DNA of 64,000 nt from an uncultured Candidatus Saccharibacteria bacterium (GTDB lineage: Bacteria > Patescibacteriota > Minisyncoccia > Phycocordibacterales > UBA9973), in contig CAZCXF010000001.1 of assembly GCA_964502615.1 (NCBI GenBank), forward strand, positions 50,722-114,721. The letters run 5' to 3'. The translations under genes and the position numbers were made by a program. The notes beneath the pieces are model-generated. The model saw only the letters and a list, made by a program, of their open reading frames with translations. It was not told the origin of the DNA and did no database searches. Positions 16,640-63,320 of the stretch are shown here, piece after piece. The stretch's first letter is position 1. Each line of letters starts with the position of its first letter.

Positions 16640-17611
16640 ATGAAAAAACGTTTGCTTTCAGGTGTCAAACCTACCGGAGCTCCACATATTGGAAACTATT
16701 TTGGTGCTATGCGCCAATTTGTTGATCTACAAAAGGATTATGAGGCATTTATAATGATTGCTGACTATCATGCACTCAACTTTATCCAAAATAAGAAAGA
16801 AATGGAGGAAAATATATTGGGAGTAACACTTGATTACTTAGGTATAGGACTTGATCCAAAGAAAGTTGTTATATTCAAGCAATCAGATATTAGTGCTCAT
16901 ACTGAGCTTGCTTGGATTTTCGATACCATAACAACAATGCCTTATCTTATGCGCGCTCATGCTTACAAAGATGCTGAAGCAAAAAATAAAGAAATAAATG
17001 TAGGAACCTTCAATTATCCTATGCTCATGGCTGCTGATATTTTGTTATATGATCCAGAAATAGTTCCGGTTGGTTCAGATCAAAAACAACATGTTGAATA
17101 TGCCCGTGATACTGCACAAAAATTCAATAATCTTTATGGTGAAACTTTTATCATGCCAAAAGAACTAATTATGAAAGAAGTTGCGACTGTCACTGGAACT
17201 GATGGACAAAAAATGAGTAAAAGTTATAAAAATACAATTCCACTTTTTGGGACAGATGAAGAAATAAAAAAAGCAGTTATGAGTATTGTCACAGATTCAA
17301 AGACACCAGAGGAACCAAAAGATCCTGAGACTTGCAATATTTTTGCTTTGCATAAACTTTTCCTAAATCAAGAAAATTTAAATAAACTATCCGATAGGTA
17401 TAAAAAGGGTGGTATTGGTTACAAAGAATCTAAAGATATGCTCCTCCAAGAAATTTTGGAGCTAATAAAACCTATGAGAGCTCGTCGTGAAAAATATGCA
17501 AAGAATCTAAAAAAAGTAAAACAGATATTAAAAAATGGAGGCAAGAAAGCATCTAAAATAGCCGAAAAGAAAATGAAATTAGTACGTAGTAATATCGGAG
17601 TAAATATATAA
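16640..17611 (+). CDS. trpS: tryptophanyl-tRNA synthetase
   Basis: PTGAPHIGNY (HIGH) and KMSKS motifs. Confidence 0.95.
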   Translation: MKKRLLSGVKPTGAPHIGNYFGAMRQFVDLQKDYEAFIMIADYHALNFIQNKKEMEENILGVTLDYLGIGLDPKKVVIFKQSDISAHTELAWIFDTITTMPYLMRAHAYKDAEAKNKEINVGTFNYPMLMAADILLYDPEIVPVGSDQKQHVEYARDTAQKFNNLYGETFIMPKELIMKEVATVTGTDGQKMSKSYKNTIPLFGTDEEIKKAVMSIVTDSKTPEEPKDPETCNIFALHKLFLNQENLNKLSDRYKKGGIGYKESKDMLLQEILELIKPMRARREKYAKNLKKVKQILKNGGKKASKIAEKKMKLVRSNIGVNI

Positions 17612-17614
17612 ATT

Positions 17615-17893
17615 ATGTTTTATCTAATTTTAAGATGGATAATAATTATTGTAGCAATTCTTTTAATTATAAAGAGTGTTAAATTTATACGTGTGATTCT
17701 CACTGTTGCTCTAGGAATAATTTATATACCTATAAACAATTTGAATCTAGCTGTCCAGAAATGGTATTTCGGTATTAGACACAAAGATAAAATACTCTAC
17801 TATCTATTCACACCATTTTACTGGATTATTGTTGGTATAACTTTCCTAATATCTATACCTTATGAGTTTGTTATAGCAATGGATATCCATTAG
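17615..17893 (+). CDS. hypothetical small membrane protein
   Basis: 92 aa with 2-3 TM helices. Confidence 0.3.
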   Translation: MFYLILRWIIIIVAILLIIKSVKFIRVILTVALGIIYIPINNLNLAVQKWYFGIRHKDKILYYLFTPFYWIIVGITFLISIPYEFVIAMDIH

Positions 17894-17904
17894 ACTCTGC
17901 ATTT

Positions 17905-18098
17905 TTTTTGTGATATTATGGATTTACGCCTTTGAACCAGCCGACACTGGGGAGGTAGGGAAAGAAAGCATAAAATGCAAATAGACTCCCTCGTATAAGC
18001 TACGATACAGTTTTAAATGAGTCGAAAAGTAGGGTGGCACCGCGACAAAGATCGCCCCTGCAAATGTATTATTATTAATACGTTTGGAGAGGCGATTT
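17905..18098 (+). promoter_or_regulatory. T-box riboswitch leader (Asp specifier GAC) with intrinsic terminator, upstream of aspS
   Basis: Conserved T-box sequence AGGGTGGCACCGCG at 18021-18034. The variable base C would pair with the G73 discriminator of tRNA-Asp. A terminator helix (atcgcc.../...ggcgat) is followed by TTTTTGTTTT. A candidate GAC-A specifier lies in the 5' stem region (ccgacact). Confidence 0.6.
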
Positions 18099-18123
18099 TT
18101 GTTTTCTCTAAACTCATATAAAT

Positions 18124-19419
18124 ATGAAAAATAGAATTTATATAAAGGATTTAAGTGAGAATATTGGTAAAGAAGTAGTTATCAAAGGTTTTGCTCATAC
18201 AATAAGAGCACAAAGTAAAATTATCTTTTTACTAGTTCGTGATATTACTGGAATTATTCAAACAGTAATTGAGATTTCTAGTGAAGCATTTGAGATTGGC
18301 AAAAATTTATCTACTGAGTCTGTTATATCTTTAACTGGTATTGTTAAAAGTGCACCTCAAGCACCTGGTGGTATTGAGGTTGGAGTTTCAAAAATTGAAG
18401 TTCTGTCAGCTTCAAGTCCAGAACTTCCTATTCCAGTTATTAGTCAAAAAGGTGGTGAGGAAACTGAAGCACCAATACGTTTTGACTATCGTTGGATTGA
18501 TCTAAGAAAACCAGAGAAAGCTAAAATTTTTAAAGTTTGGACTGAACTAGAAAAAGGATTCCGAAAATACTGGGATGAAAATAATTTTATACAACTATAT
18601 CCGCCTAATTTCCTTGAAACTCAATCGGAATCTGGTGCTGAAGTTTTTACGGTGAACTACTTTGATCGAAAAGCATTCTTACCTCAATCGCCTCAATTTT
18701 ATAAGCAAATGGGTATTGCGTCGGGATTTGAGAAAGTTTTCATGGTCGCTCCTGTATTTAGAGCTGAACTTTCCTTTACGACTCGCCACCTAACAGAATT
18801 TACTGGATGGGATTTCGAAATGGGATACGTAGAATCGCATCATGATGTTATGGATGCTGAAGAAGGAATGATTATATCTGGGTTCGAAAGAGTTAAAGAA
18901 AAGTTTCCAGAATTGAATATTAATATACCAACTTCTCCATTTCCTAGAATCACAATGATTAAAGCCAAGGAAATTTTAAAAAATCTTGGAGTAGAAAGTG
19001 GAGAAGAGCATGACCTCTCACCAGAAGAAGAGCGAGCAATTTCCGATTATGTAATGAAAGAAATGAATCATGAATTTGTCTTTATTACTGAATATCACAA
19101 ATCGAAAAGCGCTTTTTACCATATGAGGCTTGAAGAAGGGAGTGATAGATCACGCCGAGCAGATCTTTTATTTAAAGGTCTTGAGATTACAACACTTGCT
19201 CAGCGTGAACATAGGGTTGATAAACTAGAGAAACAAGCTCTTGAAAAAGGAATGTCACTTGAGTCTCTTAAGGATTATATTAATTTCTTCCGCTATGGAT
19301 GCCCTCCTCACGGTGGAGCAGGGATCGGTCCTGGACGTCTAATTATGAAGCTTCTTGATCTTCCAAATGTTCGTGAAGCGACATACTTACCACGTGATGT
19401 TAAAAGATTAAACCCATAA
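18124..19419 (+). CDS. aspS: aspartyl-tRNA synthetase, archaeal/eukaryotic type (likely non-discriminating)
   Basis: Class IIb motifs FRAE, TEFTGWDFEMGY and GGAGIGPGRL. The 431 aa size fits the archaeal-type enzyme. gatB is present in the window. Confidence 0.93.
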   Translation: MKNRIYIKDLSENIGKEVVIKGFAHTIRAQSKIIFLLVRDITGIIQTVIEISSEAFEIGKNLSTESVISLTGIVKSAPQAPGGIEVGVSKIEVLSASSPELPIPVISQKGGEETEAPIRFDYRWIDLRKPEKAKIFKVWTELEKGFRKYWDENNFIQLYPPNFLETQSESGAEVFTVNYFDRKAFLPQSPQFYKQMGIASGFEKVFMVAPVFRAELSFTTRHLTEFTGWDFEMGYVESHHDVMDAEEGMIISGFERVKEKFPELNINIPTSPFPRITMIKAKEILKNLGVESGEEHDLSPEEERAISDYVMKEMNHEFVFITEYHKSKSAFYHMRLEEGSDRSRRADLLFKGLEITTLAQREHRVDKLEKQALEKGMSLESLKDYINFFRYGCPPHGGAGIGPGRLIMKLLDLPNVREATYLPRDVKRLNP

Positions 19420-19421
19420 TT

Positions 19422-19811
19422 ATGGATAATTGTATTTTTTGTAAAATTGTAAAAGGAGATATTCCGGCGTCAAAAGTTTATGAGGACTCTGACTTCGTTG
19501 CTTTCTTAGATATTCACCCAGTATCAAAAGGTCATACTTTAGTTGTTCCTAAAAACCATTTTGAATCGATCGAAAAAACTCCTGACGAAGTGATCATGAA
19601 AACTTTTGTGCTTGCGAAAAAGCTCATTATTAAATTAAAAGAGAGCTTAGGGAGTGATTTTGTTAACTTGGATATTGAAGGTATACAAGTTCCGCATTTA
19701 CATGTGCATCTTATTCCAAGAATGCTAAATGACGGTGTAGTGAAATGGGAGCATACTTCTTATGCGTCGGATGCTGAAAGAAATGAATTCATAAATAAAA
19801 TTAAAATGTAA
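19422..19811 (+). CDS. HIT-family hydrolase
   Basis: Histidine triad HLHVHLIP. Confidence 0.85.
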   Translation: MDNCIFCKIVKGDIPASKVYEDSDFVAFLDIHPVSKGHTLVVPKNHFESIEKTPDEVIMKTFVLAKKLIIKLKESLGSDFVNLDIEGIQVPHLHVHLIPRMLNDGVVKWEHTSYASDAERNEFINKIKM

Positions 19812-20596
19812 TGGATGTAGAACAAAAACAAAATCAATACAAGGTAAAAACTGGTACTTTCGAAGGCCCACTAGAATTACTCATATCTTTGATAGAGCAA
19901 AGGAAACTTTTTGTGAATGATGTTTCAATAGCTCAAGTGACTGATGACTACATTAAATATGTTAGAAGTATACCTGATAGGTCAAATGATACTCACATTG
20001 CAGATGTCTCAAGTTTTTTACTTACTGCTGCAACTTTGATACTTATTAAGTCAAAATCTTTGCTACCTAATCTAACTCTAACAGAAGATGAAGAAGAAAA
20101 AATATCTGACCTAGAAAATCGTTTAAAACTTTATCAAATCATTAAGAATGCAAGTATAGACATTAAGGCAAACTTTGGAACACGCATAATATTTAGACCC
20201 CTTGAAAAAACCTGGAATGAACCTTTATTTTCTCCAGATGAAGCTATTACAATTGAATCGATGCATTCTTGTATTAACGATGTCTTAGCTCATCTTCCTA
20301 AAAAACAAGAAAAATTACCAGAAGTAGAAGTTAGGAAAGTTATAAATATAGAAGAGATTATAAACAGTCTTACTGATCGAATTCAAGATGCGATTAATCT
20401 ATCATTTAAAGATTTTGCTAAAAGTCATAATCCAGAAAGTGAAGTAGAAGCAAAAGTTCATGTTATAGTTTCGTTTCTAGCTATGTTAGAATTAGTTCGT
20501 GAAGGTATTATTGATGTAGTACAGAACAACACATTTGAAGATATAAATATAACTAAACAATCAGTCGAAAAAGGTGGTGAAGAAGAAAATAAATAA
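19811..20596 (+). CDS. scpA: segregation and condensation protein A
   Basis: Kleisin N-terminus FEGPLELLISLIEQRKL. Confidence 0.85.
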   Translation: MDVEQKQNQYKVKTGTFEGPLELLISLIEQRKLFVNDVSIAQVTDDYIKYVRSIPDRSNDTHIADVSSFLLTAATLILIKSKSLLPNLTLTEDEEEKISDLENRLKLYQIIKNASIDIKANFGTRIIFRPLEKTWNEPLFSPDEAITIESMHSCINDVLAHLPKKQEKLPEVEVRKVINIEEIINSLTDRIQDAINLSFKDFAKSHNPESEVEAKVHVIVSFLAMLELVREGIIDVVQNNTFEDINITKQSVEKGGEEENK

Positions 20597-20597
20597 T

Positions 20598-21137
20598 ATG
20601 GAACTGGAATCAAAAATTGAAGGACTTCTTTTTTATAAAGGTGAAGAAATGAGCTCAGCTAAAATTGCTGACGCTTTAAAAGTAAGTGAACCTGAAGTAA
20701 TCGAAGCAATCGGCAGGCTTGAGCAAAATCTAACTCAAAGAGGGTTAGTACTTATAAAAAAAGAAAACTCTATCATGCTTGGTGTCGCCCCTGAACTTGC
20801 ACCAATAATTGAATCTATTAGAAAAGAGGAATTAGTAAAAGATCTTTCAAAAGCTTCTTTAGATACTCTTTCTATTATTCTATATAAGAATGGAGTTTCA
20901 AGAAGTGAAATCGACTATATTAGAGGAGTCAATTCTAGCTTTATTATAAGAAATCTATTAGTTCGAGGTTTAATAGAAAAGGTAATTGATGAAAAAGATA
21001 CTAGGAGAAACCTATATAGACCTTCATTTGATGCTTTATCGTACATGGGAGTTACATCTGTAGAGAATTTACCTAATTTTGAAAATGTAAGGAACGAGTT
21101 AGATAATGTTCTAAAACAAGAAGACAAAAATGATTAA
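20598..21137 (+). CDS. scpB: segregation and condensation protein B
   Basis: ScpB wHTH tandem with IEGLLFYKGEEMS. An alternative upstream start is at 20574. Confidence 0.85.
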   Translation: MELESKIEGLLFYKGEEMSSAKIADALKVSEPEVIEAIGRLEQNLTQRGLVLIKKENSIMLGVAPELAPIIESIRKEELVKDLSKASLDTLSIILYKNGVSRSEIDYIRGVNSSFIIRNLLVRGLIEKVIDEKDTRRNLYRPSFDALSYMGVTSVENLPNFENVRNELDNVLKQEDKND

Positions 21138-22179
21138 TGCATTAAAAATATTACTTCCAGCAGCTATAAGTTTTTTGGTGGGTATAATACTCACGCCTGT
21201 TGCTACGCATTATTTTTATAAATATAAATTATGGCGTCGAGTTTCTCGCTTAGAAAATGTTCCTCAAAGTGAGTTTGCAAAAATAAATGATGGTATTAGT
21301 GAAACTTCAACACCTAGAACAGGAGGAATGATAGTCTGGATTTCTGTTATTATTACAATTTTCATATTCTGGCTAATAAATGTTTTTCTTAATAGCGATT
21401 TTAGCCACAAAATGTATTTTATAAGTCGAGGGCAAACATTACTACCGCTCTTTACTCTTATAACAGCATCAATAATTGGACTTGGAGATGATTTTGTACA
21501 AATATTTGGACAAGGAAAATGGACAACAGATCCTATAAAACTACGTTATATAAAAATATCTATCATAGTTTGTCTTGGGATTATTATCGGATGGTGGTTC
21601 TTTGTTAAATTAGGAATATCAAGTTTATATATACCATGGTTTGGATTAGTAGATCTTGGTTATATTTTTATTCCATTCTTTATTCTGATCATGCTTGGAG
21701 TTTGGTCTACTAGTGTTATCGACGGCATAGATGGTTTATCTGGAGGTGTCTTATCCTCTATATTTGCAAGTTACACTCTAATAGCTTTTTTCCATAATCA
21801 ATTAGACTTAGCTGCATTTTGTGCTGTTATTTCTGGTGGTATACTTGCTTTTCTGTGGTTCAATATACCTCCAGCACGTTTTTATATGGGAGAAACTGGT
21901 ATGATCGGTCTTACTGTGACATTATCGGTCATAGCCTTTTTAACCAACACTGTTTTATTGTTGCCAATAATTGCTTTTCCACTTTTCATAACATCACTCT
22001 CTAGTATTATTCAAATGCTCTCTAGAAGATTTAGGAATGGTAAGAAAGTTTTCCTATTTGCTCCACTACATCATCACTTTGAAGCGCTTGGTTGGCCTAA
22101 ATATAAAGTCACAATGCGTTATTGGATAGTAGGTATTATAACTTCCATGATAGGAGTTATAATATCCCTTATAGATTAA
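21130..22179 (+). CDS. mraY: phospho-N-acetylmuramoyl-pentapeptide transferase
   Basis: Motifs DDFVQIFG, VIDGIDGLSGG and NIPPARFYMGETG. Confidence 0.93.
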   Translation: MINALKILLPAAISFLVGIILTPVATHYFYKYKLWRRVSRLENVPQSEFAKINDGISETSTPRTGGMIVWISVIITIFIFWLINVFLNSDFSHKMYFISRGQTLLPLFTLITASIIGLGDDFVQIFGQGKWTTDPIKLRYIKISIIVCLGIIIGWWFFVKLGISSLYIPWFGLVDLGYIFIPFFILIMLGVWSTSVIDGIDGLSGGVLSSIFASYTLIAFFHNQLDLAAFCAVISGGILAFLWFNIPPARFYMGETGMIGLTVTLSVIAFLTNTVLLLPIIAFPLFITSLSSIIQMLSRRFRNGKKVFLFAPLHHHFEALGWPKYKVTMRYWIVGIITSMIGVIISLID

Positions 22180-23283
22180 ATGAAAAAGGGTAATATTGAT
22201 AGAATTTTTTTAGGTATAGTTATTACACTTATTATTATAGGTGTGATTATGTTTACCTCTGCATCTTTAGGAATTTTAGCCAGAAGTGAAACAAAATTTT
22301 ATAGTGTTATATTTGCTCAATTTGTCTTCGGACTATTTGGAGGTCTTGTTGCTTTGTATGCAGGATTAAAGATACCTTACAAATTTTGGAGAGATTACTC
22401 ATTACCACTTTTTATTATATCAATTGCTCTGACGCTACTTGTTTTCGTACCACAGTTTGGAACCTATCACGGAGGGGCAAGGAGATGGGTAAATATTTTC
22501 GGTTTCTCATTTCAACCAGTTGAGTTCTTAAAAATTGGTTTTATTTTATATTTTGCTGCTTGGCTTTCTTGGGCTAAAAATAGAATAAATGATTTACGGT
22601 TTAGCTTATTGCCTTTAGTGGTGATGCTAGGAGTAATTGCAGTAATACTACTAAAACAACCTGATACAAAAAGTATTATTTTAATAACTGTAACTGGCAT
22701 AACTATGCTATTTGTATCTGGTGTGTCTTGGAAATATATTTTAGGTTTCTTGGGTGTAAGTATTATCGGATTTATAATATTAGTCTCTTTTAAACCATAT
22801 CTTAGAGAGAGAATCGAGACATTTTTTCATCCAAGTCAAAATGGTAGTAGTACTTCATATCAACTTCAACAATCATTGATTGCTGTTGGTTCGGGGGGGA
22901 CTTTCGGTAGAGGTTTGGGTCAGAGTATCCAAAAATTTAATTATCTCCCAGAGCCACAAGGAGACTCTATATTTGCTGTTGTAGGAGAAGAGCTAGGTTT
23001 CTTAGGAGCGACTATTTTGATATTGCTTTATGTAGCTTTCGCTCTTAGGGGTTATCGAATAGCATATCAAGCCCCAGATTCTTTTAGCAAATTACTAGTT
23101 ATTGGTACTATAACGATTATTACAGCTCAATCTTTTATGAATATAGCATCTATAATTGGAGTTTTTCCATTGACTGGAGTACCTCTTGTTTTCATTAGTC
23201 ATGGAGGTACAGCGCTATTTCTTTCTATTGGAATGATGGGCATAGTCCTAAATATATCTAGGAATTATAAAAAGCAACACTAG
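22180..23283 (+). CDS. ftsW: SEDS-family peptidoglycan polymerase FtsW/RodA
   Basis: 10-TM SEDS architecture with a conserved C-terminus GGTALFLSIGMMG. Confidence 0.9.
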   Translation: MKKGNIDRIFLGIVITLIIIGVIMFTSASLGILARSETKFYSVIFAQFVFGLFGGLVALYAGLKIPYKFWRDYSLPLFIISIALTLLVFVPQFGTYHGGARRWVNIFGFSFQPVEFLKIGFILYFAAWLSWAKNRINDLRFSLLPLVVMLGVIAVILLKQPDTKSIILITVTGITMLFVSGVSWKYILGFLGVSIIGFIILVSFKPYLRERIETFFHPSQNGSSTSYQLQQSLIAVGSGGTFGRGLGQSIQKFNYLPEPQGDSIFAVVGEELGFLGATILILLYVAFALRGYRIAYQAPDSFSKLLVIGTITIITAQSFMNIASIIGVFPLTGVPLVFISHGGTALFLSIGMMGIVLNISRNYKKQH

Positions 23284-23318
23284 AATATATAAATAAAATA
23301 CGGTAGAATAAGCTCTAT

Positions 23319-24446
23319 ATGAAGATATTGCTTACAGGAGGTGGCACAGGTGGACATTTTTATCCATTAATAGCCATAGCAGAAGAATTAAACAACTTAG
23401 CTGAGAAAGAAAAAATTATCGATTTAAAGTTGTATTACATGTCCGATGATCCATATGACAAACATATGCTTTTTGAGAATAGAATTACATATGTCCAAGT
23501 ACCTGCTGGCAAAATGCGCACCTATTTTTCAATTAGAAATTTTCTTGATATTTTTCCAACAGCTATAGGAGCATTTTATGGACTCCTTAGTATGTTTTTT
23601 ATTTATCCAGATGTGGTTGTTTCAAAAGGTGGCTATGCAGCATTTCCGGCTTGCTTTGCCGCAAAATTACTTAGAATTCCAGTTATTATTCATGAATCAG
23701 ATTCAAGTCCTGGTAGATTAAACCTATGGGTTGCTAAATTTGCCAAACGTATTGCTGTGTCTTGGGGTGAAGCAGGAGAAAAGTTTCCAAAAGATAAAGT
23801 GGCATTAACTGGCCAACCTATAAGAAAAGCTATAATTCAATCCAATCCTGAAGGTGCGCATGATTTTTTCAAACTCGCTTCAGATTTACCAGTTATATTT
23901 ATATATTGTGGCTCCCAAGGTGCTGACATTATAAATAACACCCTTATCCAAATACTTCCAGAATTACTTTCAAAATACCAAGTAATCCATCAGACTGGTC
24001 CTAAACTCTACGAAGAAGTTTTGGCTCGATCAAAACTTGTACTTGAAAATAACCCAAACATTAGCAGATATAGACCTATTGGTTATTTAAACAATCTAAC
24101 GATTAGAATGGCTTCGGGGGCAGCAAATTTAATTATAGGTAGAGCAGGATCAACAATATTTGAAATCGCTTCTTGGGGTGTTCCATCAATTATAATTCCT
24201 ATAACAAATTCTAATGGTGATCATCAAAGGAAAAATGCTTATTCATATGCCAGAAGTGGTTCGTGTGAAGTTGTCGAAGAGGGTAATCTATCTCCTCATG
24301 TTTTAATGTCTGAGATCGATCGCTTAATGTCAGACCAAAATAAATTAAATGAGATGAAGAAAAATGCTCTAGCTTTTGCAAACCCCAAAGCTGCAGAAAA
24401 AATCGCTCAAGAAGCTATCGATATTGCTCTAACACACGAATCATAA
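23319..24446 (+). CDS. murG: UDP-GlcNAc:lipid I N-acetylglucosaminyltransferase
   Basis: N-terminus LTGGGTGGHFYPLIAIAEEL and a GT28 C-domain. Confidence 0.93.
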   Translation: MKILLTGGGTGGHFYPLIAIAEELNNLAEKEKIIDLKLYYMSDDPYDKHMLFENRITYVQVPAGKMRTYFSIRNFLDIFPTAIGAFYGLLSMFFIYPDVVVSKGGYAAFPACFAAKLLRIPVIIHESDSSPGRLNLWVAKFAKRIAVSWGEAGEKFPKDKVALTGQPIRKAIIQSNPEGAHDFFKLASDLPVIFIYCGSQGADIINNTLIQILPELLSKYQVIHQTGPKLYEEVLARSKLVLENNPNISRYRPIGYLNNLTIRMASGAANLIIGRAGSTIFEIASWGVPSIIIPITNSNGDHQRKNAYSYARSGSCEVVEEGNLSPHVLMSEIDRLMSDQNKLNEMKKNALAFANPKAAEKIAQEAIDIALTHES

Positions 24447-24448
24447 TT

Positions 24449-25930
24449 ATGGATAATAAAAACAAAAAAATTGTTACTCGCTTTGCTCCAAGCCCAACTG
24501 GATATTTACATATTGGTGGAGTTAGAACTGCATTATATGCGTGGGCATATGCTAGGAAACACAATGGTACTTTTATTTTAAGAATCGAAGACACTGATAA
24601 AGAAAGAGAAGTTCCAGGTTCTATTGAACATATAATCGAATCTTTGAAGTGGTTAGGTATTTCGTGGGACGAGGGTCCAGATATTGGTGGTCCAAATGCT
24701 CCATACAAACAATCAGAAAGATTAGATTTGTATAAAAAATATGCACAGATATTAATAGATAAAGGGCTAGCTTATGCTGATCCGTATTCTACAGAAGAAC
24801 TTGAAGAATTTAGGAAAAAAGCTGAGGCAGAAAAAAAACCATTCCTATATAGAAACCATAGACCAGAAAACCCTCCAAAATGGGATGGAACTATGCCGCT
24901 ACGTTTAAAGATAGTAGATATAAAACAAACTGAATGGTTTGATGAAGTTCGTGGAAAACTTACTGCAGGAGAAGAAGCACTGGACGATTTTATACTTATA
25001 AAAAGTGATGGTTATCCTACTTACAACTTTTGTCACATTGTTGATGATTTAGAAATGGGAGTTACACATATTATGCGTTCAGATGAGTTTATTTCATCTA
25101 CACCGAAGTTTTTAGCATTATACGACGCTCTAGGAATTGAAAGACCTCACTTCGCGACATTACCTCCTATAATGGCACCTGATGGGAAAAAGAAGCTTGG
25201 AAAGCGGGATGGAGCAAAAGATATTTTAGATTATAGAGCAGACGGGTATCTACCAGAAGCGATGTTTAATTTTCTGGCATATATCGGTTGGAGTCCAGAA
25301 GACAATAAAGAAATACTGACACCTGAAGAATTCATAAAAGTATTCGAGTTAAATAGAATTCATAAATCTGGTGGTGGTTTTAATGTTGAAAAACTCGATT
25401 GGATAAACAGAGAGTATTTAAAGAAACTTTCTTATGAAGAACAAGAAGAGTATGTAGTTAAATTTATACCTAGTTATATAAAGAATCTTCCAGGATATTC
25501 AAATAGTATAATTCATAATATTACTCCTATAATAATGGAGCGCATAACGAAAGGTGTAGATATAGTAAAGATGGCAGAAGATAAAGAGTTAGATTATTTT
25601 TTCACTAAACCTACTTATGATAAAAATTCTCTTTTCTTTAAATCAAGCAAAATTCCAGAAGAAAATAAATACAAAATTTTATCTGAATATTTAAACAAGG
25701 TTCTACTTATATTAAGTAGTATTGAGGACATAAACTTCAATAAAGAAGTCGTAAAAGAAAAAATCTGGCCTTACACAGAGGAAGTTGGTAGAGGTGATAT
25801 ATTGTGGCCTATGCGATATGCATTATCGGGCTTAGATAAATCTCCGGATCCATTCTTACTTGCAGAAGTTTTAGGAAAGAAAGAAGTTCTTGATAGATTA
25901 ACTAGTGCAATTTTAATATTAGAAAAATAA
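24449..25930 (+). CDS. gltX: glutamyl-tRNA synthetase
   Basis: RFAPSPTGYLHIGGVRTALY (HIGH region) and a KLGKRDG KMSKS-like motif. Confidence 0.95.
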   Translation: MDNKNKKIVTRFAPSPTGYLHIGGVRTALYAWAYARKHNGTFILRIEDTDKEREVPGSIEHIIESLKWLGISWDEGPDIGGPNAPYKQSERLDLYKKYAQILIDKGLAYADPYSTEELEEFRKKAEAEKKPFLYRNHRPENPPKWDGTMPLRLKIVDIKQTEWFDEVRGKLTAGEEALDDFILIKSDGYPTYNFCHIVDDLEMGVTHIMRSDEFISSTPKFLALYDALGIERPHFATLPPIMAPDGKKKLGKRDGAKDILDYRADGYLPEAMFNFLAYIGWSPEDNKEILTPEEFIKVFELNRIHKSGGGFNVEKLDWINREYLKKLSYEEQEEYVVKFIPSYIKNLPGYSNSIIHNITPIIMERITKGVDIVKMAEDKELDYFFTKPTYDKNSLFFKSSKIPEENKYKILSEYLNKVLLILSSIEDINFNKEVVKEKIWPYTEEVGRGDILWPMRYALSGLDKSPDPFLLAEVLGKKEVLDRLTSAILILEK

Positions 25931-25944
25931 GCTATAATAATCTT

Positions 25945-27258
25945 GTGAGAACAAAGATTACTTATATACTTCTATTAATTTTGTTTTGTGGTTCTTTTAT
26001 GCCACAGACGGTATTGGGGCTGACTGCTGAGAGTGTCAACGAAAAGATCAAAGATGTGAATGCTCAGATCGAAGCATTAAATAAAGAAATACAACAATAC
26101 CAAAGTCAGATTTCTGAGACGAACCAACAAGGTAACACCTTAGCTAACTTAATCAAAGAATTAACCCTAACTCGGGATAAACTCTTAAAAGAAACAAAAC
26201 AAACCGAGAAAAAAATTACTGCGACTAATATTGTAATCAATACCTTATCAGATGATATAGCTGAAAAAGAAAAATCAATAAATGTAGGTGAAGATGCTAT
26301 AAATAAAATGATTCGAGATTTACAGTTAAAAGATAGTGACACACTAGTAGAGAAAATTTTATCTAAAAATAATTTAAATGATGCAAATCGTGAATATAAT
26401 AACATCATAACAGTCAACGAGAAATTAAGAACTTTTATTATAGATATAAAAAAACAAAAAGAAGAATTAGAAAATTCTAAAAACCAAAAGCAGACTGAAC
26501 AACAAAAACTTTCTAAATTGAAGAAAAGTTTAATTGAAAAAAAACTAGCAGTTGATATATCAAAAAAAGAAAAAGATACTCTTCTAATAGAGACTAAGAA
26601 TAAAGAATCTAACTACAAAAAGCTTTTAGCGGATAGGATTAAGAAGAGAGATGCGTTCGAAAAAGATTTGGAAAATTACGAAGCCCAATTAAAATTTATA
26701 CTAAATCCAAATCTATTACCAACAGAAGGTTCAGGAATACTTTCTTGGCCACTAGATAACGTATTTGTTACTCAGCTTTTCGGCAAAACAATTTCAGCAA
26801 AAAGGCTATATGTTTCAGGATCTCATAGTGGGGTTGATTTTCGAGCATCTATAGGAACCCAAGTTAAATCTATGGCTGATGGAGTTATAGTTGGTAGTGG
26901 TGATACAGATTTGTATTGTAAGGGTGCATCATTTGGAAAATGGATATTTATAAAATATGACAATGGACTCTCAAGTACATACGGTCACTTGTCTTATATT
27001 TCAGGAGCAACTGGTCAGAAAGTAAGAGCAGGTGATGTTGTAGCACTGTCTGGGAATACAGGACATTCTACGGGCCCACATTTACACGTTACTGTATATG
27101 CTTCTCAGGGAGCAGATGTTAAGACAGTACCATCACTATCTTGTAATGGAAAGACATTTATTATGCCTATTGCTCCAACGAAGGCATATCTCGATCCAAT
27201 GCTTTATTTGCCTAAGTTAGGTACTGGTATGATAAAAAATGACAGCCCCCGTGACTAG
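25945..27258 (+). CDS. secreted coiled-coil M23 metallopeptidase (EnvC-like architecture, catalytic residues intact)
   Basis: N-terminal signal/TM, a ~220-aa coiled coil, and a C-terminal M23 domain with HSGVD and HLH zinc-binding motifs. Confidence 0.85.
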   Translation: MRTKITYILLLILFCGSFMPQTVLGLTAESVNEKIKDVNAQIEALNKEIQQYQSQISETNQQGNTLANLIKELTLTRDKLLKETKQTEKKITATNIVINTLSDDIAEKEKSINVGEDAINKMIRDLQLKDSDTLVEKILSKNNLNDANREYNNIITVNEKLRTFIIDIKKQKEELENSKNQKQTEQQKLSKLKKSLIEKKLAVDISKKEKDTLLIETKNKESNYKKLLADRIKKRDAFEKDLENYEAQLKFILNPNLLPTEGSGILSWPLDNVFVTQLFGKTISAKRLYVSGSHSGVDFRASIGTQVKSMADGVIVGSGDTDLYCKGASFGKWIFIKYDNGLSSTYGHLSYISGATGQKVRAGDVVALSGNTGHSTGPHLHVTVYASQGADVKTVPSLSCNGKTFIMPIAPTKAYLDPMLYLPKLGTGMIKNDSPRD

Positions 27259-27273
27259 TGCTATAATTTATCC

Positions 27274-27696
27274 ATGAACGAAGAAGTCAAAAAAGACTCG
27301 ACGGAACATAAGCATCATAAGATTCGCATAGGTGCTTTGATTGTTGTCGTCCTTCTAGTGTTTATACTTTTTAAGGTTAACTTACGTAAAGCAGTTAATT
27401 CTCCACAATTTAATGACAATGTTTCGTTTATCGAACAAAAAGTAAAAGGTTGGTACGAAAGAGCAACCAAACTTTTTGACGGTATGTTTAAGAACACTTT
27501 AAACAATGGAGTAAATCAACTAAAAACTGGAGGTGGTTTAAATTTTAATGCACCAGTACTTGTCGATCCAAATATCATTGAGAATAAAATTGGCGCAGAC
27601 AGAATCAGGGGATACTTCAATGCTCCGAATGATGAGAATATCGACAAAAAATTTAATGAAGTATATAACCCTATAAGTACTCCTGTATCCAATTAA
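27274..27696 (+). CDS. hypothetical membrane-anchored protein
   Basis: 140 aa with a single N-terminal TM helix. Confidence 0.4.
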   Translation: MNEEVKKDSTEHKHHKIRIGALIVVVLLVFILFKVNLRKAVNSPQFNDNVSFIEQKVKGWYERATKLFDGMFKNTLNNGVNQLKTGGGLNFNAPVLVDPNIIENKIGADRIRGYFNAPNDENIDKKFNEVYNPISTPVSN

Positions 27697-27752
27697 TATC
27701 AATTGTAAAAATTGAAAAAATATGTAATTATAGAACATCGCCCTTTTATTAT

Positions 27753-27837
27753 GCCCGAGTGGCGGAACTGGTATACGCGCACGACTTAAAATCGTGTCTC
27801 GCAAGGGATGTGGGTTCGACCCCCACCTCGGGCACCA
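27753..27837 (+). tRNA. tRNA-Leu (anticodon UAA), type II with long variable arm, CCA encoded
   Basis: Acceptor GCCCGAG/CTCGGGC, anticodon stem-loop CACGA-CTTAAAA-TCGTG, T-arm GTGGG-TTCGACC-CCCAC, and a 13-nt variable arm. Confidence 0.85.
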
Positions 27838-27840
27838 AAT

Positions 27841-29256
27841 ATGTCAAAACAATATTACACAACAATAGGACTTGAAATACACGCAGAACTAAAGACAAAC
27901 TCAAAGATGTTTTGTGGTTGTGTAAATAACCCTGATGAAGAGAAACCGAACGTAAATATATGTCCAATCTGTATGGCTCATCCTGGAACACTCCCAGTTA
28001 TAAACAAAAAGGCTGTTGAGAGTGTTATTAAAGTAGGCCTTGCACTAGGAGCAAATATTGCTGACTTTACAGAATTTGACCGTAAGAATTATTTCTATCC
28101 AGATATCCCAAAAGCTTATCAGATATCTCAATATAAATATCCAATAGTCTCTGGTGGATCTCTCAATGGTGTAGATATTACTCGTATTCATTTAGAGGAA
28201 GACACTGCAAATAATAAACACGATAGGGGTAATTACTCATTAGTAGACTTCAATCGTGCGGGTGTGCCTCTTATGGAACTAGTAACAGAACCAGTAATTC
28301 ACTCTGCGAAACAAGCAGGGGATTTTGGTCGCGAATTACAACTTCTACTACGATACCTAGATGTATCTGAAGCAAATATGGAGAAAGGTGAGATGCGTGT
28401 TGAGCTCAATATTTCAATATCTGAAGACCCAAATAAATTTGGTACTAAAGTCGAAGTAAAAAATATTAACTCATTTAAAGCGGTAGAACGTGCTGCAGAG
28501 TACGAAATCAAACGTATGTCAGCATTACTCGACGAAGGTCGTGGCGCAGAAATAGTCCAGGAGACTCGTGGTTGGGATGAAAACAAACAATCCACTTTCT
28601 CACAGCGCTCAAAAGAAAATGCAAATGATTATCGTTATTTTCCAGATCCAGATTTACCAAAACTATATTTAAGTAGAGCGTTTGATATAGAAAAATTAAA
28701 GTCAGAGTTACCTGAACTTCCTCAAACTAAACGAGCAAGATATAAGAGCGAGTACGGTATTAAAGATGAAGATATAGAGAGTTATGTTGTAGATATTGAA
28801 CTTGGTAAATGGTTTGAACAGGTAGCAAAAGAATTAAAAGATAAAGAAAAGATAAAGGTTGCATCAAACTACATTACTTCAGACTATATAGGCATTAAGA
28901 AATCAAACGAAAAAGCAAATCTACCTTCAGTATCAAATTTTACTGAGCTTATAAATATGCTAACAGATGGCCAAATTTCATCTCGTACAGCGAAAGATAT
29001 ACTTGCTATGATTGTTATTGAAGATGCTTCACCAATGAAAATTGCAACCGAAAAAGATTTAATTCAGAAAAACGATGAAGGAGCTCTAAAAGAAATCGTA
29101 CAGAAAGTTATAGACGCAAATCCTCAGGTTATTACTACTTATAAAGGTGGTAAGGAAAATGCATTAATGTCACTTGTTGGTCAAATAATGAAAGAAACAA
29201 AAGGTTCAGCAAATCCTGGTCTTGTTCAAAAACTTTTGAAAGAATTGATAGGGTAG
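27841..29256 (+). CDS. gatB: Asp-tRNA(Asn)/Glu-tRNA(Gln) amidotransferase subunit B
   Basis: YYTTIGLEIHAELKTNSKMFCGC at the N-terminus. The ORF-track start at 27808 runs into the tRNA, so the start was set at the MSKQYY Met. Confidence 0.93.
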   Translation: MSKQYYTTIGLEIHAELKTNSKMFCGCVNNPDEEKPNVNICPICMAHPGTLPVINKKAVESVIKVGLALGANIADFTEFDRKNYFYPDIPKAYQISQYKYPIVSGGSLNGVDITRIHLEEDTANNKHDRGNYSLVDFNRAGVPLMELVTEPVIHSAKQAGDFGRELQLLLRYLDVSEANMEKGEMRVELNISISEDPNKFGTKVEVKNINSFKAVERAAEYEIKRMSALLDEGRGAEIVQETRGWDENKQSTFSQRSKENANDYRYFPDPDLPKLYLSRAFDIEKLKSELPELPQTKRARYKSEYGIKDEDIESYVVDIELGKWFEQVAKELKDKEKIKVASNYITSDYIGIKKSNEKANLPSVSNFTELINMLTDGQISSRTAKDILAMIVIEDASPMKIATEKDLIQKNDEGALKEIVQKVIDANPQVITTYKGGKENALMSLVGQIMKETKGSANPGLVQKLLKELIG

Positions 29257-29360
29257 AGAATTGACCGCCTAAATAGTTTTTGTTATATTGAAATTAATAC
29301 AAGATATTTCGTCTCTTTTTGAGACACAATCATATTTTTCATATGGCAAGCAATCGTTAA

Positions 29361-29402
29361 GGGGACCCGTTGATTTCTATCAGCTCGTGGGTCCTATTTT
29401 TT
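29361..29402 (+). terminator. hairpin ggggaccc...gggtcct followed by T-run, after gatB
   Basis: Inverted repeat with TATTTTTTA. It lies inside the 5' part of the ORF-track ORF 29288..29647, which argues for the downstream start. Confidence 0.55.
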
Positions 29403-29419
29403 ATGTTAAAATATTAAAT

Positions 29420-29647
29420 ATGGAGACAAATATAAAACCGGGTAAATATAGACATTTTAAAGGAGTAATTCACGAAATTTTGGGTGTCGCAAAACACACA
29501 GAAGATCATAATAAAGAATTTGTAGTATATTATCATCCAGATGAAAATGGAAAGAACCAGCTCTGGGTTAGACCAAAGGAAATGTTTCTAGAACACATAG
29601 ATAGAGATGGCTACAAAGGTCCTAGATTTGAGTATATTGGTGAATAA
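29420..29647 (+). CDS. DUF1653-like small protein
   Basis: GKYRHFKG...VYYHP...WVRP pattern typical of DUF1653. The start was set at METNIK, downstream of the terminator hairpin. Confidence 0.5.
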   Translation: METNIKPGKYRHFKGVIHEILGVAKHTEDHNKEFVVYYHPDENGKNQLWVRPKEMFLEHIDRDGYKGPRFEYIGE

Positions 29648-50047: not shown

Positions 50048-50491
50048 ATGGCAAAACAATTACAACTTAAAATTGTCACACCAGAGAAACTAATCTTAGA
50101 AGATTTAGTTGAATATGTAGTTGTACCTACGACAGAGGGAGAGATTACAATTCTCCCAGATCATGTACCACTAATATCAGCACTTTCATCTGGTGATATT
50201 GTTGCATATGAAGGCGGTGAACATATTCCGATGGCTGTCGTTGGAGGATTTGTTGAAGTAAAAAATGTTGATGGGAAAACAGAAGTAGCAATCTTGGCAG
50301 ACTTTGCAGAACATGTAAAAGATATAACTGATGATGCTATTAATGTTGCCCGTGCTCGTGCAGAAGAACTAAAAAAACAAGCAGAGAACAAAGAAGTTGT
50401 TGACTTTGAACATTTTGCGACAGAACTTGAAAGATCACTAACTCGTGTAAAAATAGCTGATAAGTGGAAAACAAGAAAATATAGGAAATAA
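50048..50491 (+). CDS. atpC: F1 ATP synthase subunit epsilon
   Basis: Beta-sandwich N-domain followed by a helical C-terminus. Last gene of the operon. Confidence 0.85.
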   Translation: MAKQLQLKIVTPEKLILEDLVEYVVVPTTEGEITILPDHVPLISALSSGDIVAYEGGEHIPMAVVGGFVEVKNVDGKTEVAILADFAEHVKDITDDAINVARARAEELKKQAENKEVVDFEHFATELERSLTRVKIADKWKTRKYRK

Positions 50492-50492
50492 A

Positions 50493-50520
50493 AAAGGTGG
50501 TCAAAACATTGACCACCCAT
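50493..50520. terminator. bidirectional hairpin ggtggtcaa...ttgaccacc
   Basis: 9-bp stem after atpC. It also serves the convergent minus-strand genes. Confidence 0.7.
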
Positions 50521-50550
50521 CTAAACAAATTACATTTTTAGTGATAGAAC

Positions 50551-50925
50551 CTATTTATACAATCTATTGCGTCTTTCTCGTATCTCTCTCATAACCTTGA
50601 GGTTTTTGTGTATAGATACTATGTAAAAAATTGCGGTAATTGCAATCCATACAATGGGCACCACACCAGTAAAACCAGATGAAAAACTTACTATCCATAA
50701 AAAGATTGATAATTTTCCAAGAAAGTCTATTGATGTAAATTCCCGATCGTTTATCCGTACAATACACCACTGAAGTATTGCAACAACAACAGAAAACTTT
50801 AACGCAGACAGGACATCGTCCTTACCTATGAGTACCCATGACCAACATATTATCCCGATAATAATAAAGATAATTACAGGGACCAAAATGTTTTTGGCCT
50901 TTATTTTCATTTCTTTCTCTTTCAT
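50551..50925 (-). CDS. hypothetical 4-TM membrane protein
   Basis: 124 aa. Overlaps its upstream partner by 4 nt. Confidence 0.4.
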   Translation of the reverse strand: MKEKEMKIKAKNILVPVIIFIIIGIICWSWVLIGKDDVLSALKFSVVVAILQWCIVRINDREFTSIDFLGKLSIFLWIVSFSSGFTGVVPIVWIAITAIFYIVSIHKNLKVMREIRERRNRLYK

Positions 50926-62810: not shown

Positions 62811-62845
62811 CAAAATACCCTCGACCGAAGTCGAGGGTATTTTGT
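62811..62845. terminator. bidirectional terminator aataccctcgac...gtcgagggtatt
   Basis: 12-bp perfect stem. It serves cspA on the minus strand and the upstream plus-strand unit. Confidence 0.7.
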
Positions 62846-62853
62846 TAAGTCGC

Positions 62854-63051
62854 CTATGCGCGCTGTACGTTTACAGCACTAGGTCCCTTTGCAGTTTCTT
62901 CTGTATCGAAAGTAACAGCGTCACCTTCACGTAGTTCGTCGAACTGAACGTTTACAAGAGAGTTACTGTGGAAGAATAAATCCTTCGCAAGTCCTTCTGC
63001 TGTGATGAAACCGAAACCTTTGTCAGTAAGCTTTTTGATTGAGCCAGTCAT
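62854..63051 (-). CDS. cspA: cold-shock protein (CSD)
   Basis: RNP1 KGFGFI and RNP2-like VTFD motifs. A long 5' UTR lies upstream. Confidence 0.93.
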   Translation of the reverse strand: MTGSIKKLTDKGFGFITAEGLAKDLFFHSNSLVNVQFDELREGDAVTFDTEETAKGPSAVNVQRA

Positions 63052-63320
63052 TGATTTTGATTGTTATAAATTGCTAAAAATAAGATAAATGTGTAAAAAA
63101 TCGACTCTTTTCTCGATAGACCTTATGTGCTTACATACTACAATATCTATAATTATTTGTCAAAGTTTATTTAAATAAAACATTGAAAATATTGACAAAA
63201 TAACGGATAGATGCTATTCTTTATTAGTTGAAATACTCCTAAGTGCGTGTATATAAGTGTTTCAATTTTTCGCCTAATCTAAGGCGAATCATTTATTTTT
63301 GAAACACGTAAAATTTAATC

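Follow-up and report, generated by a model that had tools for sequence, protein, structure and literature searches.

The stretch of DNA analysed here, a window of 64 kb, contains a 230-nt gap between an ORF of 92 amino acids that ends at position 17893 and the aspS gene (18124-19419, + strand), and this gap holds all the leader elements described below. The segment directly upstream on the same strand (16640-17893) carries trpS, which ends at 17611, and the membrane-like 92-amino-acid ORF; many members of the clade share the trpS-aspS synteny, whether or not they have the leader. The first-pass annotation had placed a T-box sequence (AGGGTGGCACCGCG) and a terminator 5′ of aspS, and both were confirmed, the T-box sequence at 18031-18044. 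The product of aspS, a 431-amino-acid AspRS recognized with Pfam and NCBIfam, is of the archaeal type, and the suggestion that it is non-discriminating was borne out: the protein passed both NCBIfam equivalogs for aspartate--tRNA(Asn) ligase (NF003483 with 454.4 bits for a cut-off of 353, and TIGR00458 with 378.2 bits for a cut-off of 368.4) and did not reach the cut-offs that NCBIfam sets for its bacterial aspS and asnS models. Its homologues come from the Patescibacteria/CPR (Paceibacteria, Zambryskibacteria, Nomurabacteria and others), and several sources label them aspartate--tRNA(Asn) ligase.

Behind aspS, we recovered with Pfam, NCBIfam and ARAGORN the gene order that had been proposed earlier, namely HIT, scpA, scpB, a mraY-like gene, ftsW, murG, gltX, an M23 peptidase gene, tRNA-Leu and gatB, with an ORF of 140 amino acids between the M23 peptidase gene and tRNA-Leu(taa). 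The identities of trpS, gltX and gatB were confirmed by NCBIfam. From HIT to gatB (19422-29256, + strand) the genes form a co-directional string that is a candidate for co-transcription; from aspS onwards they overlap or lie 0-56 nt apart, and gatB is found 9.7 kb downstream. The tRNA-Leu(taa) gene (27753-27837) is embedded in this string of protein genes and is overlapped by the mechanically called gatB ORF, which begins at 27808; a gatB start at 27841, as annotated in the first pass, fits the NCBIfam alignment. In a custom scan, no strong intrinsic terminator was found between 18105 and about 29396. The next terminator-like hairpin, with a U6 run, is at 29362-29402 (+ strand, -17.6 kcal/mol), 106 nt past the gatB stop codon. 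This hairpin falls within the 5′ part of a TTG-initiated ORF (29288-29647) that matches DUF1653 from residue 52 on, and the true start of that ORF is probably downstream of the terminator.

A consensus scan of the + strand found a -35-like hexamer, TAGACT (17891-17896), a match to the consensus only, which overlaps the stop codon of the 92-amino-acid ORF, and an extended -10 element, TGaTATTAT (17911-17919), at a spacing of 17 nt from it. The transcription start predicted from the -10 element is at about 17926, just 5′ of the first stem of the leader (Stem I). The homologous leaders that we collected (see below) show the same layout: a -10 hexamer with at least five of six matches was found 3-14 nt (observed 6-9 nt) 5′ of Stem I in 10 of 18 leaders, compared with 5.4% of random positions, and a TGn-extended -10 element upstream of Stem I in 8 of 18, compared with 0.7% of random positions. 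Together with the terminator features described below, the -10 element upstream of Stem I indicates that the leader opens a transcription unit, and that the switch is most likely transcriptional. The span first assigned to the element, 17905-18098, has the -10 promoter element at one end and the beginning of the U-tract at the other, but the functional leader corresponds to about 17926-18105. Our custom fold-based scan found no terminator between trpS or the 92-amino-acid ORF and the leader, and transcripts derived from trpS would likewise enter the T-box terminator.

When the window was searched with Rfam at the gathering threshold, no T-box was reported, only two tRNAs. With permissive filters, the T-box model RF00230 gave an end-to-end match at 17923-18062 (E = 3.6e-8 locally, 4.2e-6 over the whole window) with a score of 42.7 bits, far from the gathering score of 93. 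Alignment to the model succeeds for the K-turn, for Stem II and its S-turn of the GAA/AGUA type, for Stem IIA, for the UGGNACC bulge and for both helices, A1 and A2, whereas 74 model positions of Stem I are reduced to 4 nt and 17 positions of Stem III to 3 nt. The low score is due to the absence of these 74 Stem I positions and of the Stem III hairpin, and thus reflects another architecture rather than a false positive. We therefore built a class-specific covariance model, R1, from 12 leaders (139 positions, 25 pairs). The window leader scored 139.5 bits with R1, which had no other match in the 64 kb and which recovered two further divergent aspS leaders. By both the Rfam and the R1 searches, the aspS leader is the only T-box within the window. 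The homologous leaders of Patescibacteria score only 30.5-45.7 bits on RF00230, and Rfam-based annotation will miss CPR leaders that score 30-46 bits where the gathering score is 93. The description of the T-box as canonical, made in the first-pass annotation, thus failed, given the sub-gathering score, which that annotation had itself named as a ground for refutation, the ultrashort Stem I and the lack of Stem III; nevertheless the match is not spurious, as the R1 score and 20 covarying homologues indicate. As far as can be judged from sequence, the aspS leader is a real tRNA-sensing T-box of a stripped-down type that standard annotation misses.

The leader has much in common with the Class I T-boxes of the Bacillus subtilis tyrS type (RF00230): competition between antiterminator and terminator, a UGGN bulge, a K-turn, Stem II, IIA/B and control of a synthetase. 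The presence of the T-box core, K-turn, Stem II and terminator could suggest a canonical, Firmicutes-type (Class I) T-box, yet we consider this identity extremely improbable. In Class I leaders, Stem I extends over about 90 nt, its Specifier loop is internal and its distal end bears a double-T-loop platform; a Stem III is present, and the basal pair of A2 is G.U. Here the long Stem I, Stem III and the A2 G.U are absent or altered, which explains a score of 42.7 rather than 93 bits. The internal Specifier loop and the elbow platform are gone with the contraction of Stem I, Stem III is missing, and all homologues share the short form. A Class I identity with a long Stem I was therefore ruled out by the RF00230 alignment.

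In the RF00230 alignment, Stem I is an ultrashort element of 29 nt (17928-17956, + strand, as are all the leader features that follow), and both of its helices covary across the homologues. An outer helix of 3 bp, GCC/GGU (17928-17930 with 17954-17956), is followed by K-turn-like loops, UUUGAA and GGA (17931-17936 and 17951-17953), which align to the K-turn of the model, and then by an inner helix of 4 bp, CCAG/CUGG (17937-17940 with 17947-17950), closed by an apical loop of six bases, CCGACA (17941-17946). The GAC specifier codon (Asp) that had been expected in Stem I is present at 17943-17945, followed by the purine A17946, but it is carried by this terminal loop and not by an internal Specifier loop; the stem has neither such a loop nor a distal elbow-binding platform. 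In all the Patescibacteria homologues, Stem I measures about 29-30 nt and the apical loop 6-7 nt. Although the stems vary, 18 of 20 leaders have GAC at the same position of the loop; the two others are L088, with AAC, and L013, in which the position is unresolved.

The S-turn of Stem II (17957-17991, from the Rfam alignment) sets GAA opposite A-A/G-UAGA, and the lower and upper helices of this stem have double-sided changes at all 8 of their 8 pairs in the model-based alignment. The bulged G of the S-turn, which is the G of AGUA in nearly all relatives, close and distant, is replaced by A17981 in the window. The Stem IIA hairpin (17992-18004) is supported by the Rfam alignment and by its covariation, and a IIB pseudoknot, AAGCU/AGUUU, is proposed between 17997-18001 and 18009-18013, with an F-box-like CGAUAC. 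Most leaders have 4-6 nt of complementarity between the loop and the 3′ segment, which is not individually significant when the 3′ segment is shuffled; because the complementarity of a single leader cannot be separated from chance, we regard the IIA/B pseudoknot only as likely. A purine string, AAAUG, comes next, then AGUCG, a linker of 5 nt that takes the place of Stem III, and then AAAA (18015-18028 in all). The Stem III helix is absent from the window leader in the Rfam alignment and, as judged by eye, from about 12 of the 20 leaders, while the RRRxG ... AA purine motif that flanks Stem III, as defined in PMC7583486, is kept.

The antiterminator (18029-18061, -12 kcal/mol) contains AGGGUGGCACCGCG (18031-18044) and consists of helix A1 (18031-18034 with 18056-18059), helix A2 (18042-18044 with 18053-18055) and, between them, the 7-nt T-box bulge UGGCACC (18035-18041). 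Across 19-20 leaders, pairing is 100% in both helices, and exchanges from AU to GC occur in A1. The A1 variants observed among the leaders (AGGG/CCCU, AAGG/CCUU and GAGG/CCUC) are accompanied by matching changes in the terminator, which indicates that both conformations are under selection. The base pair of A2 is G-C in the window leader, as it is in 19 of 20 leaders, in contrast to the conserved G.U that has been described as the 'primary steric sensor' (PMC7583486). One of the Streptomyces aspS leaders discussed below, L078, likewise has G-C at the base of A2, so this feature is not unique to the leaders of Patescibacteria.

The first four bases of the bulge, UGGC (18035-18038), are complementary to a 3′ GCCA end and imply a G73 discriminator. 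G73 is the discriminator base of bacterial tRNA-Asp. Scanning of the window and of 120 related loci turned up no tRNA-Asp gene, and for this reason the match of both the anticodon and the discriminator of tRNA-Asp to the leader is assumed. A tRNA-Asn(GTT) gene, apparently with G73 and without an encoded CCA, does occur in a contig of Patescibacteria without the T-box leader, some 215 nt 5′ of aspS (L033:123-196).

The terminator hairpin (18044-18103) has a G+C-rich core (18052-18095) and a predicted stability of -34.3 kcal/mol (z = -8.76), and none of 200 shuffled sequences folded as well. It is followed by a U-tract, UUUUUGUUUU (18096-18105), and ends 21 nt before the start of aspS. A simple terminator scanner missed this hairpin because of its internal mismatches and the custom fold-based scan recovered it. 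Since the 5′ arm of the terminator is formed by the 3′ strands of the antiterminator helices, bases 18044-18061 being common to both, the two folds (-34.3 and -12 kcal/mol) exclude each other, as the first-pass annotation had supposed. The homologous hairpins range from -23 to -40 kcal/mol, and in the terminator helix of the homologues 9 of 14 pairs show double-sided changes, with 92.8% of the cells paired.

Class III T-boxes are defined by a short Stem I without an elbow-binding motif, an apical loop of five or six nucleotides that holds the Specifier and a requirement for Stem II (PMC10482949), and examples are known from the ileS genes of Nocardia farcinica and Mycobacterium tuberculosis (PDB 6UFM, 6UFG; PMC7583486, PMC10482949). 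The window leader has the apical-loop Specifier, the short Stem I and the Stem II S-turn of this class, and likely IIA/B as well. However, the Shine-Dalgarno sequestrator usual in Class III is replaced by a terminator with a U-tract. The likeness to the Class III ileS leaders thus includes the platform-less short Stem I, the K-turn, the S-turn in Stem II, IIA/B and the A1/A2 bulge; whereas those leaders are actinobacterial, respond to Ile and sequester the ribosome-binding site, the one described here belongs to Patescibacteria, is specific for Asp, ends in a terminator and U-tract, and has a compact form without a Stem III helix.

It could be argued that the leader is a Class III T-box that works at the level of translation, with the hairpin at 18044-18103 acting as a sequestrator and not as a terminator. 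Classes III and IV are said to be 'mostly' translational (PMC10482949), ultrashort Stem I elements have been assigned to the slower, translational leaders of Actinobacteria (PMC7583486, PMC7778990, PMC11297988), and the link between a short Stem I and translational control recurs in the literature (PMC7583486, PMC10482949, PMC11297988), transcriptional T-boxes being thought generally to need the elbow platform of a long Stem I for fast capture of the tRNA (PMC7583486). In addition, the 3′ arm of the hairpin contains a Shine-Dalgarno-like GGAGAGG, and one homologue, L015, has no U-tract. We nevertheless consider translational control unlikely. GGAGAGG is over 30 nt away from the ATG, and when we examined the sequences next to the hairpin in the leaders we found no Shine-Dalgarno motif within its reach. 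Among the homologues, anything from 9 to 113 nt separates the hairpin from the ATG, and the G+C-rich stem leads directly into a U-run in every aligned leader except L015. Moreover, the same type of hairpin and U-tract marks the ends of ordinary genes in this genome (near 5304, 14494/14520, 35327, 53032 and 62816/62839).

For comparison, we fetched 80 aspS loci from species-representative genomes and 80 from metagenomes, along with 9 loci around the closest AspRS proteins. The leader was present in 8 of 35 aspS loci from representative genomes of Patescibacteria and in 13 of 80 metagenome aspS loci. Its distribution is therefore patchy, with roughly one aspS locus in five carrying it and about four-fifths of related loci without it, and the R1 search found none in the Chloroflexi, Solirubrobacterales and other loci examined. 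All the leaders of Patescibacteria with a parsable Stem I are of the ultrashort form, with an xxGACA apical loop on differing stem sequences. A MAFFT alignment of 19 leaders gave 90% of paired cells for the structure in the antiterminator state, with a covariation score of 0.425; column shuffles gave 0.200, none of 500 reaching the observed score, and slid registers at most 0.18. In a model-based alignment of 20 leaders, which is fitted to the structure and hence biased toward it, 20 of 25 pairs had double-sided changes and 91.8% of the cells were paired, again with no shuffle out of 500 scoring as high.

These data also bear on whether the hairpin could be a mere terminator of the trpS and 92-amino-acid ORF unit, next to T-box-like bases that arose by coincidence, as the lack of any other terminator between trpS and aspS might suggest. 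We find this hardly credible given the Rfam E-value of 4e-6 over the whole window, and a plain terminator would not need Stem I, Stem II and the antiterminator to covary as they do. The element also travels with aspS, and not with trpS, across differing synteny.

The leader is present in the nearest relatives, with 96% and 89% AspRS identity, and was absent in the relatives examined at 84% AspRS identity or less, despite their conserved trpS-aspS-scpAB synteny. Such a patchy distribution, with many apparent losses, could mean that the window copy is a decaying relic that leaves a leaky or constitutive terminator before aspS, and the A17981 change in the S-turn, the lack of Stem III and the G-C at the sensor pair could be read in the same way. 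This seems unlikely to us, if slightly less so than translational control. A constitutive terminator of -34 kcal/mol in front of an essential, single-copy synthetase gene would be costly, and the relatives at 96% and 89% identity keep every leader element, with compensatory changes in Stem II and the pseudoknot. Furthermore, the form without Stem III and with G-C is the majority across divergent lineages, and is thus under selection.

At one locus (L088:2301-2493, on the metagenome contig Ga0209417_1000014), the apical loop reads CCAACA and the specifier is AAC (Asn); the leader is otherwise intact, with 127 bits on R1 and an unchanged UGGC bulge. One base change would suffice to make tRNA-Asn, which is the other substrate of a non-discriminating AspRS, the target of the switch. 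A second T-box was observed at the edge of another locus (L025:1-135, Patescibacteria MAG JBAYNC010000005.1). Its bulge reads UGGAACC, A2 has G.U as its basal pair, and both a Stem III hairpin and a terminator with U7 are present; its Stem I is cut off by the end of the locus, and the element precedes an ORF of 593 amino acids whose N-terminus resembles ThrRS by eye only. T-boxes of Patescibacteria are therefore probably not limited to aspS.

The best explanation of the leader, to which we give a probability of roughly 80%, is that it is a tRNA-Asp-responsive T-box of minimal plan that controls aspS by transcription attenuation. The sequence elements, the mutually exclusive folds, the covariation in 20 homologues, the Asp codon, the position of the promoter and the enzyme type carry this reading, while the low Rfam score, the lack of Stem III, the G-C at A2, A17981, the failure to find a tRNA-Asp gene in the loci scanned, the role ascribed to the elbow platform in transcriptional T-boxes and the patchy distribution count against it. 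Binding of the tRNA, sensing of its charging and termination in vivo would be as in established T-boxes. Transcription would start at about 17926, and the nascent RNA would fold into the K-turn Stem I that displays GAC, then into Stem II and then IIA/B. By analogy with the Class III ileS leaders, Stem I and the S-turn of Stem II would clamp the anticodon stem-loop of tRNA-Asp (anticodon GUC) without any contact to the elbow. If the tRNA is uncharged, its 3′ GCCA end would pair with UGGC (18035-18038) and stabilize the antiterminator (18029-18061), so that RNA polymerase would read into aspS and probably also into the genes packed behind it. With charged tRNA, the much more stable terminator (18044-18103 and the U-tract) would form, and transcription would stop about 20 nt before aspS.

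We further propose, tentatively and at somewhat less than even odds, that Patescibacteria have their own lineage of minimal transcriptional T-boxes of about 135 nt, which would sense charging co-transcriptionally through contacts to the anticodon and the 3′ end only. If such T-boxes work, they would be the smallest natural transcriptional T-boxes, and the association of a short Stem I with translational control would be a matter of lineage and not of mechanism. T-boxes rank with the RNA switches that are understood best. A short Stem I joined to a terminator, and conserved with covariation, is a natural test of the kinetic argument for a long Stem I, and it offers a very small scaffold for the engineering of tRNA sensors. 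Stem III, which these leaders mostly lack, has been described as indispensable (PMC7583486). The truncated-Stem-I model of TBDB was searched only in Actinobacteria and in sequences already detected by Rfam (PMC7778990). Our full-text search, which had incomplete coverage, found no paper linking T-boxes to Patescibacteria, CPR, Saccharibacteria or Parcubacteria, and transcriptional Class III T-boxes may already have been published elsewhere. In its general logic the aspS leader is ordinary; what sets it apart, as a well-supported T-box, is the Class III design with a terminator platform, the Asp specificity, the lack of Stem III and a phylum for which we found no T-box report. It would also be among the few specific regulatory devices visible in these reduced and probably amino-acid-dependent organisms.

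The aspS leaders of Streptomyces invite comparison, as they too combine a GAC specifier, a UGGC/UGGU bulge and a G-C at A2 with an archaeal-type AspRS (43-46% identical). At seven Streptomyces loci (L046, L050, L051, L052, L067, L075 and L078), the T-box lies about 70-290 nt upstream of a (second) archaeal-type aspS. Their Stem I, however, is long and canonical and displays GAC from an internal loop, and a Stem III is present. These leaders score 76 bits on RF00230, which is also below the gathering score of 93, and R1 matches their T-box core only; membership in the same class was rejected on account of their long Stem I. T-box control of tRNA-dependent Asn synthesis has reportedly been described in Clostridium acetobutylicum by Saad et al. 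(in JBC in 2012 and in PNAS in 2013; cited in PMC4206432), and the leaders in that Firmicute are said to be canonical, with a long Stem I. The case presented here is similar in that a T-box is linked to the indirect Asn-tRNA pathway (non-discriminating AspRS and GatCAB), and in the Asn codon of L088, but differs in that the usual specifier is Asp and that gatB is 9.7 kb away.

Tight spacing and the lack of a strong terminator mean that read-through from the leader could reach gatB, and T-box control of genes beyond aspS is thus possible on the evidence of gene layout. The leader may in this way couple the charging of tRNA-Asp to the chromosome-segregation and cell-wall genes that stand behind aspS. 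Only aspS, however, is common to all the leader-bearing loci. Elsewhere the next gene is scpA (in five loci), one with a YbaK-like editing domain or, across a gap, a pilin-like gene, or else the genes that follow are on the opposite strand, and relatives without the leader retain the aspS-scpAB cluster. There is also a good promoter match inside the string, at 27239-27267, so that internal promoters are possible. The editing-domain gene (L018:2434-2931) encodes a YbaK/ProX-type aminoacyl-tRNA editing domain (PF04073) and begins 3 nt after aspS in a leader-bearing locus.

Two other sub-threshold matches to regulatory RNA families were observed in the window, both on the - strand. A match to the L20 leader at 50483-50581 (28.5 bits, E = 0.17) is probably due to chance and was judged ordinary; it follows atpC and lies beside a terminator-like hairpin, not near rplT. 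A match to the cspA thermoregulator at 62811-63207 (29 bits, compared with a threshold of 78) was judged ordinary; it overlaps a real gene for a 65-amino-acid cold-shock protein (62854-63051, - strand) and about 150 nt of the 5′ UTR of this gene, and a bidirectional terminator is found at 62816/62839.
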